Origin: Puniceicoccales bacterium | GTDB lineage: Bacteria; Verrucomicrobiota; Verrucomicrobiia; Opitutales; JAIRLG01 | NCBI GenBank assembly: GCA_031288595.1 | Contig: JAITRB010000007.1 | Span: 1-32,000, forward strand | DNA length: 32,000 nucleotides | Reading direction: 5' to 3' | In this document: positions 17,602 to 31,360 of the stretch, one piece after another | Layout of the letters: each line of letters opens with the position of its first letter | Position numbering within the stretch: the first letter of the stretch is position 1 | Notes under the pieces: model-generated | What the model saw: only the letters and a program-made list of their open reading frames with translations | What the model was told of the DNA's origin: nothing | Database searches by the model: none | Position numbers and translations under genes: made by a program

Positions 17602-17700
17602 CCCGCTGCCTTTGGAGCCCCCTGGGCTCCGGCCCGCGCAGCGGGCCTCAAGGGGTCCCGGGGAAATTCTTTCCCCGGGGCCCCTTGTAAAGGCAGCGGG
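17602..17700 (+). repeat. cloverleaf nested-palindrome element, copy 5
   Basis: Closing stem of 12 bp, CCCGCTGCCTTT (17602-17613) with AAAGGCAGCGGG (17689-17700). Hairpins: GGAGCCC-CCT-GGGCTCC (17614-17630); GGCCCGC-GCA-GCGGGCC (17631-17647); AAGGGGTCCCGGGGAAA-TTC-TTTCCCCGGGGCCCCTT (17650-17686). Confidence 0.85.
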
Positions 17701-20095: not shown

Positions 20096-20180
20096 GCTCA
20101 GGTGGTGAAATTGGCAGACACGCTGTCTTCAGGCGGCAGTGCCGTGAGGCATAGGGGTTCGAGTCCCCTCCTGAGCACCA
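20096..20180 (+). tRNA. tRNA-Leu (anticodon CAG), type II with long variable arm, CCA encoded
   Basis: GCTCAGGTGGTGAAATTGGCAGACACGCTGTCTTCAGGCGGCAGTGCCGTGAGGCATAGGGGTTCGAGTCCCCTCCTGAGCACCA. Anticodon loop TTCAGGC; variable-arm stem TGCC/GGCA. A TTGACC box lies at 20056-20061 upstream. Confidence 0.9.
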
Positions 20181-20225
20181 GAGAATCCCCAGTCCTAGCG
20201 TTGGGGCAGCGTTTCCTTCTTCCTA

Positions 20226-20328
20226 GCTTCGCCGCCTTGGCGATGGGAGGGAAAGGAAGGTTTTCTTTCCCTCCCATCGCGGCCCGCAAAGCGGGCCTAG
20301 GCCCTACGGGCCCCCAAGGCGGCGAAGC
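20226..20328 (-). repeat. cloverleaf nested-palindrome element, copy 6 (inverted orientation)
   Basis: Closing stem of 15 bp, GCTTCGCCGCCTTGG (20226-20240) with CCAAGGCGGCGAAGC (20314-20328). On the plus strand the order is long hairpin (20241-20279, 18 bp), GGCCCGC-AAA-GCGGGCC (20281-20297), then GGCCC-TAC-GGGCC (20300-20312). The short-short-long order is therefore read on the minus strand. Confidence 0.85.
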
Positions 20329-20754
20329 AGGCATGCATTGCGAGGACTGAGAGGCAGCGGCCAGAAAGCTCAGCTTTACTCTCCTTCACGGACAAAATCT
20401 TTCCCCCGTCTTGCTGGTGGAGCTATAGCTTAGAAGCAAGCTGCGGATACGTGTTCACTGTCTGGTTTATTTTTCTCCGGTGCGGCGCGATCAGGACGGC
20501 GAGGGATAGAGGACCTAGGGCTTTGCTCTTTTCTCGCCGTGTCCTGACGAGGGCAGGGCGCCGCTAGGACCCGATGGATAGATTTGCATCCTCGCGAAGG
20601 AGAAAATTGGGCGGGGCCCAGGCTGAATGTAGTCTTCCGGAGAAAAAAGCCCTTATATCACTAGGATTGAAAGGACTGAAGATGTTTTTTTTTGACTTAT
20701 CGAAGGGATTTCGTTACTCCTCGGGGCTATTGGTTGGCAACTAAGAGGATTTTC

Positions 20755-21852
20755 ATGATCCTGAAAGTTTTAGCGTCGAGGTATTTGGGGATAGCTGCGC
20801 TGGTCACAGGGGTGCTGCTCGTGCTGAAATCGCCCTGGCCAGAAGAAGATGGCTATGAGCTGAGGGCCCTGGAGCAATCGCCGTCGGCGGTGACCGCAGC
20901 TACCACATCTAATCTGAGGGAAGAAGCGTCGGTATCCAGAGAGGCCGAAGAGGGAAACTTATCTCTGAAAAGTTCAGCCCTGAGCCCAGAGGGCTTTTTG
21001 ACGGATACCGTGCTCATGGGCTGGCTCGTCTCTTGGGGACTGATCTGGCTCATGCGCAAACTATTTCGGGAACCGACGCTCCTCCCGTCGCGGCGGCAGG
21101 TGGCGGTGGAATTCATCATCGATGGCCTGAAGGGTCTTCTGGAACCGATTGTCGGCAAAGCGGCCCTGAGCTATGCTTTTCCGGCCCTGCTGGCCTATTT
21201 TTTCTTCATCTTGTTCCACAACTGGAGCGGTTTTTTTCCTGGAGTTTCCTCCATCGGCCTTCAGGAAGGAGGGCGCTTTCTTCCATTCCTGCGACCGATG
21301 AACTCCGATCTGAATGCAACCCTGGGAATCGCCCTGGTCTCGATGGTCGTTTGGGGCTACTGCGTCGCGAAATGTGCTGGATTACAGGGCTTTTGCGAAG
21401 AGACTTTTGGCAACAAGGCAGAGCGAGCAGGCATCCCTTTCTTCATCTACCACGCGCTGACCTTCATCTTTCTCGCCGTAGGCTGCATTGAGTGCATCTC
21501 CATTCTCTTTCGGCCGGTCTCCCTCTCGTTCCGGCTCTTCGGCAATGTCTTCGGCGGAGAAACCCTGCTGCATCACATGTACGGTTTCGGGGAATTCCTG
21601 AGCTCGGGAGGCTTTGGCCAGACATCTCTCTACGCTTTGCTGGCTAAAATTTCCTCTGGCATGGCCGATGGGATAAATCTTTTTCTCTCCTGGGCAGGTT
21701 ACTTTCTCCCGCTGCCGTTTTATTTCCTGGAGGGCTTGATCGGCCTGATCCAGGCCTTTGTCTTTACTTTGCTAGTCGCCGTTTACATCGGCCTCATCTG
21801 CCATCACGAGGAGGAGGTGCCGACGAATAGTGCGATGGGCGTTCAATCCTGA
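20755..21852 (+). CDS. atpB: F0 ATP synthase subunit a
   Basis: Start set at ATG 20755, six nt after AAGAGGA; the ORF-track TTG at 20692 is less likely. Carries the essential-Arg motif VSLSFRLFGNVFGGE and multiple TM helices. The N-terminal region includes an acidic/Ser-rich insert. Confidence 0.9.
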   Translation: MILKVLASRYLGIAALVTGVLLVLKSPWPEEDGYELRALEQSPSAVTAATTSNLREEASVSREAEEGNLSLKSSALSPEGFLTDTVLMGWLVSWGLIWLMRKLFREPTLLPSRRQVAVEFIIDGLKGLLEPIVGKAALSYAFPALLAYFFFILFHNWSGFFPGVSSIGLQEGGRFLPFLRPMNSDLNATLGIALVSMVVWGYCVAKCAGLQGFCEETFGNKAERAGIPFFIYHALTFIFLAVGCIECISILFRPVSLSFRLFGNVFGGETLLHHMYGFGEFLSSGGFGQTSLYALLAKISSGMADGINLFLSWAGYFLPLPFYFLEGLIGLIQAFVFTLLVAVYIGLICHHEEEVPTNSAMGVQS

Positions 21853-21864
21853 AAAGAAGCAATT

Positions 21865-22095
21865 ATGGTATTATACACATTACACAGTATGGCCGCCATC
21901 ACAGGCGATTTGGCTAAAGGCCTGACCGGTTCCCTGGGCTGTCTGGCTTCAGCCTTCAGCATCGCGATGATCGGGACAAAGGCGGTCGAGTCGGTCGGTC
22001 GCAATCCCGGGGCGGCCGGTAGAATTCTCGTCCAATCCATTCTGGGCATGGCTTTGGCCGAAGCGATTGCCTTTTACGCGCTCTTTTTATCCTGA
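21865..22095 (+). CDS. atpE: F0 ATP synthase subunit c
   Basis: 76-aa two-helix hairpin with the loop GRNPGAAG and the carboxylate helix GMALAEAIAFYALFL. An alternative start lies at 21889. Confidence 0.9.
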   Translation: MVLYTLHSMAAITGDLAKGLTGSLGCLASAFSIAMIGTKAVESVGRNPGAAGRILVQSILGMALAEAIAFYALFLS

Positions 22096-22184
22096 ATGCG
22101 TCTGGCTTCAGGAATAGAAGGGGACATTTGAAAAGATGGAACTGAGGTCGCTTCGGAGACTTTAGGAACAGGAGCTCTATCTCA

Positions 22185-22748
22185 ATGCTGCTTTTCCCAA
22201 GCACTCCCGTCTTTTTCGCCGTCGGACTCCAAAGTCTGATCGACGTGGTGCAGCGCTTTGGTATCCGCTGGGACTTGCTCCTGCTGCAGAGTGTCAATTT
22301 CATTGCCATGGCGATCGCGCTCTACGCCTTTGCCTTCCGCCCCATCATGAGGATCATGGATGCTCGGCGGGCAAAAATCGCGGAGGGCTTGGCCCAAGCG
22401 GAGGCGGCGACGGGCAAGTGGCAGGAGGCAGAACGGATGAGCCAGCAGATGATCAGGAATGCTGAGGGCAAGGCGCAGCAGATCATGACAGATGCCCGGA
22501 GACAGGCGCAGAACTACGCATCGGAACAGCAAAAGCTGGCTCAGACGCGGGTCGCAGATCTGCTCCAGGAAGCCAGAACGGTCATCGCTCAGGAGCGGGA
22601 ACGGATGCTGGCAGAGATCCGCCATGGGATGAGCGAAATGGTCGCTGATCTGGCGGAACGAGTCTTGGAAAATCAGCTCGGAAGTGCTGAGCGCGAGCAG
22701 TACATGGGCTTGATCAAAGCTCAGCTGGAGAGGAGATCAGTTCCATGA
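22185..22748 (+). CDS. atpF: F0 ATP synthase subunit b
   Basis: One N-terminal TM (NFIAMAIALYAFAF), then RPIMRIMDARRAKIAEGL and a long charged Ala/Gln/Glu/Arg helix, the typical AtpF layout. Its stop overlaps the atpH start (ATGA). Confidence 0.85.
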   Translation: MLLFPSTPVFFAVGLQSLIDVVQRFGIRWDLLLLQSVNFIAMAIALYAFAFRPIMRIMDARRAKIAEGLAQAEAATGKWQEAERMSQQMIRNAEGKAQQIMTDARRQAQNYASEQQKLAQTRVADLLQEARTVIAQERERMLAEIRHGMSEMVADLAERVLENQLGSAEREQYMGLIKAQLERRSVP

Positions 22749-23182
22749 GGACGAAGCGGTCACGGCGGAAAATCGCCGATCTTCTGGCCGAACATTCCTG
22801 GGATCCGCTCCAAGCGGAAAAGCTGTCAGCGGAGCGGGTGGAAGCTGTCCTGAGCGTCATCGGCGAATACCCTCTGGTCGAAGCCTCGCGACTGCGGCAC
22901 CTCTATGGGCATGCCTTAGAAGCGTTCTTCCGCCGCCGCTGCGTGGAGATCGAGTACTGCGGGCCGTACACGGCCCCGTTTTTCGAACGGCTGCGGGATA
23001 GATTTCAGGAGAGAGTGGGTCTGCCGTTGAGCTATGTGGCACGGGAAAATCCCCAGCTGCTCTCCGGTCTCCGCGTGCGCTATGGCGACCACATCTGGTC
23101 GAGAAACGTGAGGGATAATCTCGATGCCTTTCGACGAGCCATTCCGCTAAGGGGGAGCGAATTTCATCCGGAAATGCAGTAA
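22745..23182 (+). CDS. atpH: F1 ATP synthase delta (OSCP) subunit, short form
   Basis: Position after atpF with ATGA coupling. The C-terminal block LLSGLRVRYGDHIWSRNVRDNLDAF matches the delta consensus (l.GG..v..gd...D.S....L..l). At 145 aa it is shorter than the usual ~175. Confidence 0.7.
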   Translation: MRTKRSRRKIADLLAEHSWDPLQAEKLSAERVEAVLSVIGEYPLVEASRLRHLYGHALEAFFRRRCVEIEYCGPYTAPFFERLRDRFQERVGLPLSYVARENPQLLSGLRVRYGDHIWSRNVRDNLDAFRRAIPLRGSEFHPEMQ

Positions 23183-28938: not shown

Positions 28939-29418
28939 ATGCTCCCCAATGGACTAAAGATGGCGATGGATTGGGAAAGTGGAGTGGCAAAGCTGAATGG
29001 TATGCTCAGCGCCATGGGGAGGGAATTAGATTTGTCGGACCTGAAGCTGGACGAGAAGGGCAACTGCCCGCTGTCCTTCGGCGATGCCTTTATGTTGCGC
29101 TGTTCCCTGGATTCGACAGGGGAGCATGTGACGTTCTACGCCTGTGTCGGCTCGCTTCCGGCTGAGGCTGAGGCCTTTTGGGAGCGCCTCCTGGTGGCGA
29201 ATTACTTCTGGAAGGAAAGTGCCGGTTCTCGGGTGGGACTGGATCCAGAAGCAGGCAACAGCGTGACGCTCACCCAATCTATACCGATGGAATTTCTCGA
29301 CGACGAGCTCTTCTACAAGCATGTGGAGCGCTTCGTCAATGCGATGGATTACTGGGAAAAACGCCTGGCGGCTTTGCAGGAGACGAAGGACAGGGCAGCC
29401 TTTTTAAAACTACCCTAG
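28939..29418 (+). CDS. small acidic protein resembling CesT/Tir-family type III secretion chaperones (YbjN-like fold)
   Basis: AGGAGG sits 8 nt upstream of the ATG. 159 aa. The pattern LNGMLSAMGRELDLSDLKLDEKGNCPLSFGDAFMLRCSLDSTGEHVTFYACVGSLP...FWERLLVANYFWKESAGSRVGLDPEAGNSVTLTQSIP matches the class I chaperone layout as I remember it. No HMM was run. Confidence 0.55.
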   Translation: MLPNGLKMAMDWESGVAKLNGMLSAMGRELDLSDLKLDEKGNCPLSFGDAFMLRCSLDSTGEHVTFYACVGSLPAEAEAFWERLLVANYFWKESAGSRVGLDPEAGNSVTLTQSIPMEFLDDELFYKHVERFVNAMDYWEKRLAALQETKDRAAFLKLP

Positions 29419-29434
29419 CTCCAGGAGAGCAGCT

Positions 29435-30049
29435 ATGTTCCTCACGGGGCTCGAGAAAGCATTGCCGGTGGAGACGGAGCGCCTGCGCCTGCGGCCGCTA
29501 GTGGAGGATGATGAGGTAGAAATAGCCCGTTACCTCAATGATCTCGAAGTGGCGAAGGGGCTGACCTATTCGCCTTATCCCTATACCCTGGAGATGGCTG
29601 CCCAATGGCTTCAGGAGGTGGCCTTTGCGTCGCAGCGGGACCAGGTGCGCTACTGGGCCATCACGCCACGTGAAGGAGGAAACTTCCTGGGCATTCTCGG
29701 TTTCTCCCTCTGTCGAACGCACGACAAGGCGGAAATGCACTACTGGTTGGGCCGGCCCTTTTGGAATCGTGGCTATACTACCGAAGCGGCCCTGGCTATG
29801 ATCCCCTTCATCTTCACCCAAGAAGCGACCTTGCAGCGTCTGGAGATCAACTATCGTACCTGCAACTCCGCCTCGGGTCGCGTGATCGAGAAATGCGGCT
29901 TCGTCTTCGAGGGCGAGCTGCGCGCCTATGTCAAGCGCTTTGGTCACTACGATGACGTCCGCTTCTACAGTCTCCTGCGCCGCGAAGTGATGAAAGAAGA
30001 CTTGCGTTTGAGGAGAGAAGTCAGTCACAGCGAAAATCGACAGGCCTAA
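29435..30049 (+). CDS. GNAT-family N-acetyltransferase (RimJ/RimL-like, Acetyltransf_3 type)
   Basis: TERLRLRPL start, WAI...FLGILGF, PFWNRGYTTEAALAMIPFIF (acetyl-CoA loop) and NSASGRVIEKCGFVFEGELR. AGGAG lies 7 nt upstream, 16 nt after the preceding stop. Confidence 0.85.
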   Translation: MFLTGLEKALPVETERLRLRPLVEDDEVEIARYLNDLEVAKGLTYSPYPYTLEMAAQWLQEVAFASQRDQVRYWAITPREGGNFLGILGFSLCRTHDKAEMHYWLGRPFWNRGYTTEAALAMIPFIFTQEATLQRLEINYRTCNSASGRVIEKCGFVFEGELRAYVKRFGHYDDVRFYSLLRREVMKEDLRLRREVSHSENRQA

Positions 30050-31034
30050 ATCCCGATGGCGGTTCTCCTCATGAGCTCCCTTGAGATTGCAAACATGAAG
30101 AATTTAGATGGGATGAATTTTCATCGGAGGAGATCGATTGATGAGCGGAAAAAGGATCCTCCGATAAAGGGAAAGCCGTGGATTTTCGCTCTTGAAGAAT
30201 AGGCGCTACAGGACTATCGCGAAAATAGATATGGCTTCGATAAGCCTACCGGCGAAGGAGACGAAGAAAGAACCTAGGGACCGTCTTTTCTCAGTTTTGC
30301 GGTCAATCCTATTTTCGGCCCTCCACAGGTGGATCGCCTCCCCATCATGCTGGGTGTAGTGGCTTCGAGGACGTTCCCAGTGGGTGACTGCTTAAATCCG
30401 CTGAGAATAGGACGATTTCCCAAAAATAAGGACCACAGGGTATAGGCCTTTCATAGGGAGGAGTTTTTTTTCTTCCGGAGTACTGACAGAAGAAGGACAT
30501 AACGATCCGTCCGCAGGCGGCCTTCTCCTTTACCCACATCACGCGGTTTGCGCCGATGGCGAGGCTCTATCACGCAGCGCGTCCGCTCTGCCGCAAAAGG
30601 GTGCCTTGGATCGATGAGGAAAAGGACATCCCGAATGCTCGGGACTATGAGTAGCCTCGACGATATTCAGAGACTTTTATTGACCTAATAGGAATCCGCA
30701 ATGGTGGATCTCAGCTTCATCGCCGCTTCCATCGAAGCGGAAGTGACCGGTGAGTAGAAAACGTGTTGGGGAAGCGACCCAAGCGATCCTCGCGTCGCTA
30801 TGGTCGGCCTAGCTTCCGCTCGATTGCCTGCCTACATGGCTGCCAATCCCTTCGGCGGAAATAAGAGGCGGGGCGGACGGGTCTTAATGTCCATCTCCGC
30901 TTTGGGAGACTAGGAATGCATGATCTGGGCGTCTATTTCCTCCTCCACGGCAGCAGCCTGCAAGACGTTGGCACTCGATCTGGGCTCTGTCCATATAGGC
31001 GATGATCTCACGAATTATACCCATACATCCCCCT

Positions 31035-31319
31035 ATGCCTGATCTTGAACCGAATCACGATCGGCCAGTGCTGCCAGACGGCGATTCCCCTAAGCACTTC
31101 AATCTCTACGGCGAGCGCCTCGATGCCGGTCCGATGGAAAATTGGGAACAAACGCTTGACGGAAGAAGCGCGGAGCAGTTGGCAAAATTGGGAAAAATTT
31201 TGGCTAAGACTGTGTTGGAGGATGAGGCCGACAGCGTTTTTCTGAAAAAAGTAGGTTTCCCTAGAAACGGGAAAATGTGGAGGAGCGAGCAGGACGAACG
31301 GATCATTGCAGCTACTTGA
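31035..31319 (+). CDS. hypothetical small protein (doubtful)
   Basis: 94-aa ORF from MPDLE with protein-like soluble composition (LAKLGKILAKTVLEDEADSVFLKKVG, WRSEQDERI). It has no Shine-Dalgarno and no recognisable family, and a competing antisense ORF overlaps it. Confidence 0.3.
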   Translation: MPDLEPNHDRPVLPDGDSPKHFNLYGERLDAGPMENWEQTLDGRSAEQLAKLGKILAKTVLEDEADSVFLKKVGFPRNGKMWRSEQDERIIAAT

Positions 31320-31360
31320 GCCGCAGGCAGCGGAGGCAATTCTTGGGAGAATTGGGGTCC

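Follow-up and report, generated by a model that had tools for sequence, protein, structure and literature searches.

The Correia elements of Neisseria, the enterobacterial ERIC sequences and the pneumococcal RUP and BOX elements are intergenic, co-transcribed units of about 100-150 nt bounded by inverted repeats, and these miniature inverted-repeat transposable elements (MITEs) can affect the stability of mRNA or serve as RNase III targets. Within one genome, MITE copies have a common sequence and common terminal repeats, and target-site duplications flank them. The high-copy, GC-rich intergenic palindromes of the REP/BIME/REPIN group fold as single strands, are frequent at gene 3' ends and vary between related genomes; the roles reported for them are mRNA stabilisation, transcription attenuation and protein binding. 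A REP proper is a single imperfect hairpin, 20-40 bp long and marked by a conserved GTAG or CGTC at its end, and Opitutus terrae, which belongs to the same class as the clade studied here, is rich in GTAG-type REPs (PMC3733652). Here we describe a family of intergenic four-way junctions, or cloverleaves, found in the first 32,000 nucleotides of contig JAITRB010000007.1 of a Puniceicoccales bacterium (GenBank assembly GCA_031288595.1; this whole stretch is called the window), with particular attention to copy 6 (c6), which lies just downstream of a tRNA-Leu gene. The family is previously undescribed and restricted to one clade. It resembles REP/BIME, Correia and ERIC sequences in behaviour, integron attC sites in structural definition and retron RNA in layout, and it misses a defining feature of each.

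The cloverleaves share with the REP/BIME/REPIN group the copy number, composition, single-strand folding, frequent location at gene 3' ends and variation between genomes just listed, and may share its roles. Unlike a REP, each is a four-helix junction of 77-117 nt with a locus-specific outer stem, and no GTAG or CGTC tag was found at their ends. The outer stem, of 9-22 bp, is the counterpart of the terminal inverted repeat of a MITE. In contrast to MITE copies, what cloverleaves have in common is an architecture and two modules; among the window copies c2, c4, c5 and c6 both the outer stems and the long hairpin (H3) differ, and they are alike in c1 and c3 only. No direct repeat that could be a target-site duplication flanks any of 11 copies, comparisons of filled with empty sites being too diverged for exactness, and no parent transposon of the family was found in the DNA examined.

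Integron attC sites, the best-known bacterial DNA sites of this sort, likewise conserve a folded single-strand structure while sequence and length vary, and the tips of long attC sites are branched. The attC core sites R'' and R' (RYYYAAC/GTTRRRY) are nevertheless missing from the ends of c6 (GCTTCG...CGAAGC), and there is no integron cassette array or integrase near the copies, the flanking genes being housekeeping genes. Like an intrinsic terminator, a cloverleaf is a stable, GC-rich hairpin structure that follows a gene or tRNA end and precedes the next promoter; unlike a terminator, it has four helices rather than one hairpin and no U-tract in either direction. Retron msr/msd RNAs show the same order of a flanking inverted repeat, short hairpins and then a long variable hairpin, but each retron occupies one locus, its reverse transcriptase lies next to it, and its RNA is longer and partly unpaired; the cloverleaf shows none of these features. 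The double-hairpin elements and GC clusters of fungal mitochondria are short, mobile, multi-hairpin intergenic elements whose mechanism of spread is unknown. They differ from the cloverleaf in being organellar, in having two hairpins instead of a closed four-way junction and in lacking any homology to it; yeast GC clusters are covered in PMC4478555.

On the plus strand c6 reads GCTTCGCCGCCTTG / GCGATGGGAGGGAAAGGAAGGTTTTCTTTCCCTCCCATCGC / GGCCCGCAAAGCGGGCC / t / AGGCCCTACGGGCCC / c / CAAGGCGGCGAAGC, so that an outer stem encloses one long and two short hairpins in a near-perfect four-way junction. Folded as RNA within a 116-nt stretch, this strand reaches a minimum free energy of -90.9 kcal/mol, against -48.8 +/- 4.3 for shuffled sequences (z = -9.7; 0 of 200 shuffles as stable). 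The minus strand is on a par with it (-90.2 kcal/mol, z = -10.8), and with DNA parameters either strand folds as single-stranded DNA at about -52 kcal/mol (z about -10). The covariance model of the family, R1, scores c6 at 96.7 bits (E=1e-21) on the minus strand. The remainder of the spacer downstream, 20329-20700, is without structure (fold z -0.17). Another stretch of the window (15955-16075) that has the purine-rich arm in common with c6 was considered as a further element and rejected as unstructured (z -0.3 and -0.9). Between the tRNA and c6, 17 nt past the CCA, lies a small hairpin, AGCGTTGGGGCAGCGTT, with a T-rich tail (20197-20213); it is a weak terminator-like site that could suffice to end the tRNA-Leu transcript.

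A sliding-fold scan and a purpose-written descriptor search agree on exactly six cloverleaves in the window. As controls, the descriptor search returned 0.1 elements per window from block-shuffled windows and 7 weak, imperfect matches from 1.06 Mb of unrelated bacterial loci. Copies c1 to c5 have their hairpins in the order short-short-long on the plus strand, c6 alone on the minus strand. Together with five related Puniceicoccales assemblies (loci labelled L followed by a number are DNA of related or comparison assemblies; the clade sample amounts to about 130 kb in all), the window yields 18 full copies, those outside it being L002a, L003a, L003b, L003c, L004a, L004b, L110a, L111a, L113a, L112a, L112b and L114b. 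L115 carries the same copy as L114b, and one further copy is cut off where the contigs L114 and L115 begin.

Every member forms a perfect four-way junction from a single strand, whichever of the two is taken. The inner end of the outer stem is usually ..CCTTTG/CAAAGG..; the H1 stem has 6-7 bp and the H2 stem 6-11 bp, often as GGCCCGC-NNN-GCGGGCC, whereas H3 is one long hypervariable hairpin of 21-51 nt. Junction linkers measure 0-2 nt and nearly all loops are triloops. Primary sequence is little shared among the copies, c1 and c3 excepted (86% identical). The H1 of these two (CTTTGC-GGA-GCAAAG) was entertained as an "empty" target hairpin for nested insertion, an idea dropped because the window holds no other such hairpins. 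The smallest member, the miniature L004b (L004 9479-9555), has 77 nt in all and a "long" arm of only 9 bp; it follows tRNA-Val at a distance of 157 nt, in tandem with L004a, and its outer stem GGCTGTCTTTG resembles those of L002a and L112a from other genomes.

The pairing is maintained by compensatory change. RNAalifold applied to six copies found all four helices, with 23 of 37 pairs compensated. When 12 copies were aligned on the covariance model, 96.9% of the cells were paired, compared with 71.9% in column shuffles and 37-54% with slid partners, and both sides had changed in 30 of 36 pairs, which 0 of 500 shuffles matched. An alignment fitted to a covariance model is biased towards pairing, yet folds made independently for each of the first 11 copies agree with it, giving 496 Watson-Crick pairs, 13 G.U, 6 A.C and no others. 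The outer stem thus covaries, and it forms only in a single strand; therefore, the relevant state is RNA or single-stranded DNA, not duplex DNA. Within the same 11 copies the ratio of G.U to A.C on the short-short-long strand (13:6) singles out no RNA strand.

The loops show a regularity of their own. Triloops read GNA on one or the other strand in 29 of 40 cases (14 and 15 per strand), where about 12.5% would be expected (p about 4e-18), and 26 of these 29 are closed by C:G on the strand that reads GNA. Such d(GNA) loops with a C:G closing pair form unusually stable DNA mini-hairpins (PMC3201870). H1 and H2 of one element usually carry C-GNA-G on the same strand; which strand this is differs by subfamily, without tracking transcription.

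Copies are retained between lineages, and their stems outlast their surroundings. In the sister genome (L114/L115; AtpB 88% identical), c6 has an orthologue in the same orientation, of which the part CCCGC-GAA-GCGGGCC T GGGGCCC-TTC-GGGCCCC CAAGGCGGCGAAGT remains. The stems are identical and the loops alone have changed (in H2 from AAA to GAA), while the next 360 nt align poorly up to the T8-TTGACTTAT block before atpB. Similarly, c2 and L112b are identical in the outer, H1 and H2 stems and differ in all three loops; 34 of their pairs are the same, 3 have changed on both sides and 1 on one side, these changes lying in H3. Although the flanks of c5 and L003a cannot be aligned, their outer, H1 and H2 stems are conserved, with five double changes in H3 and one in H2. 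Compensatory changes were counted by script only for c2/L112b and for H3 of c5/L003a, the script miscounting where the junction moves by one base; other pairs were judged by eye. Retention with compensatory change and conservation above the flanks indicate constraint long after insertion.

Outside this clade no copy was found. Searches with the covariance model were negative for 735 kb of DNA from Planctomycetota and other bacteria, for L084-L086, which are distant Puniceicoccales loci, and for the relative L109 (MurE 65% identical). No Rfam family matches c6 at gathering thresholds, and a permissive Rfam scan gave only far-sub-threshold chance matches of microRNA and signal recognition particle models on its long hairpin. 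Two matches to an H1+H2 pattern in a metagenome scan were both due to chance, the structure being missing, and 21 matches to an H2+H1+AAAGGC pattern in viral contigs included no family member. We found no description of the cloverleaf in Rfam or the searchable literature. As copies occur in close relatives only and in none of the other data sets, the family is restricted to a small, sparsely sampled clade. The FtsK protein of the window is closest to metagenome-assembled genomes labelled Puniceicoccales (Verrucomicrobiota), namely L002 (85% identical) and L003 and L004 (68-69%), whose isolate names suggest a termite-gut origin.

The elements also leave a mark on the assemblies. L114 opens with Illumina adapter sequence at positions 1-27 (GAGTTCAGACGTGTGCTCTTCCGATCT) and passes straight into the interior of the c6 orthologue (28-90), and L115 (1-40) likewise begins inside the element. 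Cloverleaves evidently break short-read assemblies of these genomes, and such breaks may explain the short contigs of the clade. At the site orthologous to c4, L002 (21-127) shows long runs of C, G, A and T beside an H1 of GATTCC-TGC-GGAATC, which looks like an assembly artefact at a contig end.

As for position, the elements lie between a stop codon or tRNA end and the conserved promoter-like block of the next gene, as in the murE-atpA and tRNA-Leu-atpB spacers. In six genomes the murE-atpA spacer terminates in such a block, with the element between it and the murE stop. The features concerned are collected in Table 1. The block before atpB marks the downstream limit of the c6 spacer and is a putative promoter. 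A corresponding block upstream of atpA (about 6564-6598), CACTTGCCTTTTGG..CCTTAGATG, is conserved across genomes. Given these conserved blocks before atpA and atpB, the longest open reading frames (ORFs) of these two genes in the window probably start too early; the TTG start of the atpB ORF, at 20692, falls inside its block. An argument that c2 could not be a terminator, as it leaves a 35-nt gap to the atpA ORF, was dropped in view of the promoter-like block and the later true atpA start in the six-genome alignment.

Table 1. Cloverleaf copies of the window, the parts of c6 and the features that bound its spacer.
Feature	Position	Strand	Evidence or remark
Cloverleaf copy 1 (c1), 3' of xseB; all three loops GGA	4123..4231	+	both scans
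Cloverleaf copy 2 (c2), between murE stop and atpA promoter-like block	6599..6715	+	orthologue L112 2701-2797
Cloverleaf copy 3 (c3), 3' of ftsK	10194..10298	+	86% identical to c1
Cloverleaf copy 4 (c4), divergent spacer, ftsK start to tRNA-Val	13003..13102	+	both scans, covariance model
Cloverleaf copy 5 (c5), convergent spacer between ybeY and lipase 3' ends	17602..17700	+	orthologue L003 3566-3659
tRNA-Leu (anticodon CAG), encoded CCA 20178-20180	20096..20180	+	ARAGORN; Rfam tRNA model, 48.4 bits
Cloverleaf copy 6 (c6), entire; short-short-long order on the minus strand	20226..20328	-	folding, descriptor search
c6 outer stem arm GCTTCGCCGCCTTG, partner of 20315-20328	20226..20239		14 Watson-Crick pairs by folding
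c6 long hairpin H3, 16-19 bp, purine-rich arm GCGATGGGAGGGAAAGG	20240..20280		hypervariable arm of the family
c6 middle hairpin H2 (7 bp), GGCCCGC-AAA-GCGGGCC	20281..20297		most conserved module of the family
c6 short hairpin H1 (5-6 bp), AGGCCC-TAC-GGGCCC	20299..20313		basal pair G.U on the minus strand, A.C on the plus strand
c6 outer stem arm CAAGGCGGCGAAGC	20315..20328		folding; kept in L114/L115 as CAAGGCGGCGAAGT
T-run and TTGACTTAT block (T8-TTGACTT), promoter-like, upstream of atpB	20680..20700	+	in window, L114, L116 and L004

The explanation we favour, to which we give an even chance, is that the cloverleaf is a dispersed, structure-constrained palindromic repeat of the REP/MITE kind that probably serves as an orientation-independent boundary between genes. 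It draws on the structure and its covariation, the restriction to one clade, the turnover described below, the retention of orthologues and the location before the next promoter-like block, at gene ends of which none bears a canonical terminator of the hairpin-plus-T-run kind; such terminators show no clear enrichment. Under this explanation c6 would have inserted between tRNA-Leu and the promoter of the atp operon in an ancestor common with the sister lineage and been retained since. It would be transcribed as the 3' trailer of the upstream unit, where its hyperstable fold may act as a generic boundary structure, in either orientation, that stops or pauses read-through, blocks trimming by 3'-exonucleases or supplies a site for a double-strand-specific RNase. 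Such a boundary would insulate neighbouring transcription units rather than signal a tRNA in particular. The analogy is with REP, ERIC and Correia elements, which act as boundaries of this kind. Spread to new sites would most likely have proceeded through the folded single strand and a putative enzyme.

Several observations weigh against this explanation. No T-run or U-tract follows the copies in either direction in the flanks of 11 of them, and therefore the cloverleaf is not a canonical intrinsic terminator. A terminator scan found no canonical site at c6. As c4 occupies a divergent promoter region and L112a a 5' leader, not every copy marks a 3' end. The C-GNA-G loops point to single-stranded DNA at least as much as to RNA. 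No mobilising enzyme was seen in the DNA examined, and the 11 copies inspected lack target-site duplications. Finally, with 18 full copies, several of them orthologous, in about 130 kb, statistics on position and orientation have little power.

The main rival, possible but tentative in our estimate, is that the cloverleaf is purely selfish mobile DNA, the single-stranded substrate on which a transposase or recombinase that recognises hairpins (HUH/RAYT-like or tyrosine, for example) would act in trans, with its structure kept solely for mobility and no gain to the host. Indeed, five sites show presence/absence polymorphism. c6 itself is absent from the orthologous tRNA-Leu(cag)-atpB spacers of L004 (about 120 nt) and L116 (375 nt), the window sites corresponding to L112a (murE leader) and L114b (atpH-ftsW spacer) are empty, and so is the murE-atpA site of L109. 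At the ftsK 3' site, the window and L002 hold different elements in opposite orientation between homologous flanks, a replacement together with an inversion. Related copies also occur at unrelated loci: c2 and L002a have the H3 core and the CATCCTCCC tail in common, and L002a and L114b are alike in sequence. The family has thus spread and is still variable. The selfish explanation draws further on the equal folding of both strands as DNA, on the strong enrichment of C-GNA-G mini-hairpin loops with their equal split between strands, and on the assemblies that break inside the element as they would at a high-copy repeat.

One case of copying can be followed beyond the element. The likeness of c1 and c3 extends through both flanks, over about 270 nt in all (window 4030-4300 and 10100-10370); the flanks have GTATTGTCGA..GGGAAAGAATTT in common on one side and CTAGAA..CTCTTTTTTCG..GATGG on the other. 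As the flanks of the ftsK 3' site are also kept in L002, it seems, on this comparison, that the xseB site received its copy from the ftsK site as part of a unit larger than the cloverleaf.

Purely selfish DNA accounts less well for what happens after insertion. Orthologues persist across lineages whose proteins are 63-88% identical, with stems conserved above the flanking spacer and changes that are compensatory. No decayed relics were detected, the covariance-model search giving none at E<1. Whereas active MITEs and REPINs have near-identical ends, the outer stems of the cloverleaves in a single genome vary. Target-site duplications are missing, and the only transposase seen is an unrelated IS5-type gene in L110. 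That gene (L110 250-891, in the genome that also holds L003; DUF4096 + DDE_Tnp_1, apparently split) lies upstream of murE and adjoins no cloverleaf.

A combination of both ideas, which we think doubtful, would make the cloverleaf an element class with two roles: junctions recognised by a protein that set transcript ends or insulate genes without a U-tract and in either orientation, and that also copy themselves to further gene boundaries as folded single strands. The lineage seems to be without ordinary terminators at these gene ends, and a putative junction- or hairpin-binding enzyme might then require the C-GNA-G triloops as well as a long arm that is perfectly paired and covaries fast.

We consider it unlikely that the copies are a family of independently transcribed small structured RNAs in which a protein would bind to H1, H2 and the junction and the variable arm would confer specificity. 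The covariation is on a par with that of bona fide structured RNAs, H1, H2 and the junction are indeed conserved beside one variable arm, and there is the slight excess of G.U over A.C (13:6) on the short-short-long strand. There are, however, no conserved unpaired nucleotides, the linkers being 0-2 nt long and the loops variable; the flanks of orthologues are not conserved, so that there is no conserved promoter or terminator; the stems are 96% Watson-Crick and both strands fold equally; and six copies in 32 kb are unlike the density of small-RNA genes.

The original prediction concerned c6 and its tRNA. It placed the element at 20226-20328, 45 nt after the CCA of tRNA-Leu and as the only inverted copy of the window, which is accurate in every detail, and it counted three of the six copies within 500 nt of a tRNA gene, which we confirm (gaps of 45 nt for Leu, 201 nt for Val and 488 nt for Met). 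From this it proposed a role in ending or processing the tRNA transcript. The more general half of that proposal, a transcript-ending role, is consistent with the location of c6, which has the tRNA 3' end on one side and the atp promoter-like block on the other, and with its retention in the sister genome; two L004 copies, moreover, stand within 160-380 nt after tRNA-Val. That c6 specifically signals termination or processing of the tRNA-Leu precursor, in a family functionally tied to tRNA genes, is very unlikely. No element follows tRNA-Leu(cag) in L004 or L116, and c4 lies upstream, not downstream, of tRNA-Val. Some two thirds of the copies have no tRNA within 500 nt, and most adjoin protein genes, among them murE, ftsK, xseB, lipase/ybeY and atpH/ftsW. 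Neither tRNA nor substrates of RNase P/Z provide a likeness: ARAGORN finds only the three true tRNAs of the window, the Rfam tRNA and tRNA-like models give no match, and the loops of c6, all of about 3 nt, are unlike the D, anticodon and T loops of a tRNA.

The association itself disappears once intergenic space is taken into account. Elements fill six of the eight intergenic spacers of at least 198 nt in the window, comprising 3/3 spacers with a tRNA and 3/5 of the others (Fisher p=0.46). Elements and tRNAs thus co-occur because both are confined to a few long spacers. A tRNA-specific role is therefore not supported, and c6 has no special link to tRNA-Leu.

The inverted orientation of c6 had been taken to show that any such role does not depend on the polarity of the element. 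c6 alone does not show this, for the flanking genes switch from minus to plus strand at the same place, so that its polarity relative to local transcription is the same as that of c1-c3. GC skew is positive across the entire window, and thus the flip of c6 does not track replication either. Nevertheless, polarity independence is plausible from reversed copies in relatives and from the equal folding of both strands. L002a, L003c and L114b lie between co-directional genes with their polarity reversed, which leaves no orientation rule; the tally relative to flanking genes stands at about 4-5 against 3 sites, and the tally tested, 5:2, gives p=0.45. A rule of antisense orientation, drawn from five informative window copies, failed on the sense orientation of these three relatives and on c5, which lies between convergent genes. 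The tRNA neighbourhood and the inversion of c6 are thus by-products of intergenic space and local gene direction.

That the elements are relics of a retron-like or other reverse-transcriptase-templated system is most improbable, since beyond the architectural resemblance to msr/msd no reverse-transcriptase gene adjoins any copy (the neighbours are housekeeping genes, and no window protein has such a domain), there are many copies per genome, six of them in 32 kb, where a retron has one, and the elements, which lack single-stranded regions, fall far short of retron RNAs in length.

The genes around the copies show some features of their own. From 0 to 20 kb the window genes glgP, xseB, atpA, murE, ftsK, lpxK, holA, DUF502 and lipase are on the minus strand, and from tRNA-Leu onwards genes are on the plus strand. 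The genes of the F-type ATP synthase are split: atpA stands alone beside murE on the minus strand (4977-6563), 14 kb from atpB, atpE, atpF and a probable atpH on the plus strand (20692-23182), and relatives show the same split. The region that carries c1 (3034-4460) is 1.4 kb of non-coding DNA with a GC content of 0.51 and no dxs, whereas in L109, L110, L111 and L113 xseB is directly followed by dxs, with glgP next in L109. This suggests, from gene order, that dxs has been lost or relocated here. The stretch 30050-31360 (1.3 kb), one of the two long spacers of the window that are empty, has neither a long conserved ORF nor a cloverleaf. Just before it (28939-30049) lies a CesT-family chaperone gene followed by a GNAT acetyltransferase gene, a pair also present in L084, L086 and L114 and thus conserved across distant Puniceicoccales; it may be related to type III secretion or effectors in a host-associated lineage.

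If the family is as it appears, bacterial structured intergenic repeats extend from simple hairpins to a closed four-way junction whose arms evolve by complete compensatory change while the layout stays fixed. It would then offer an unusually clean natural case for separating selection on RNA structure from selection on single-stranded DNA structure, and for asking what recognises such junctions. The terminators of Verrucomicrobiota are poorly known, and the cloverleaves bear on how gene boundaries are marked in this phylum. Furthermore, the genomes of these uncultured, symbiont-like bacteria would be easier to finish and annotate with a covariance model of the family.

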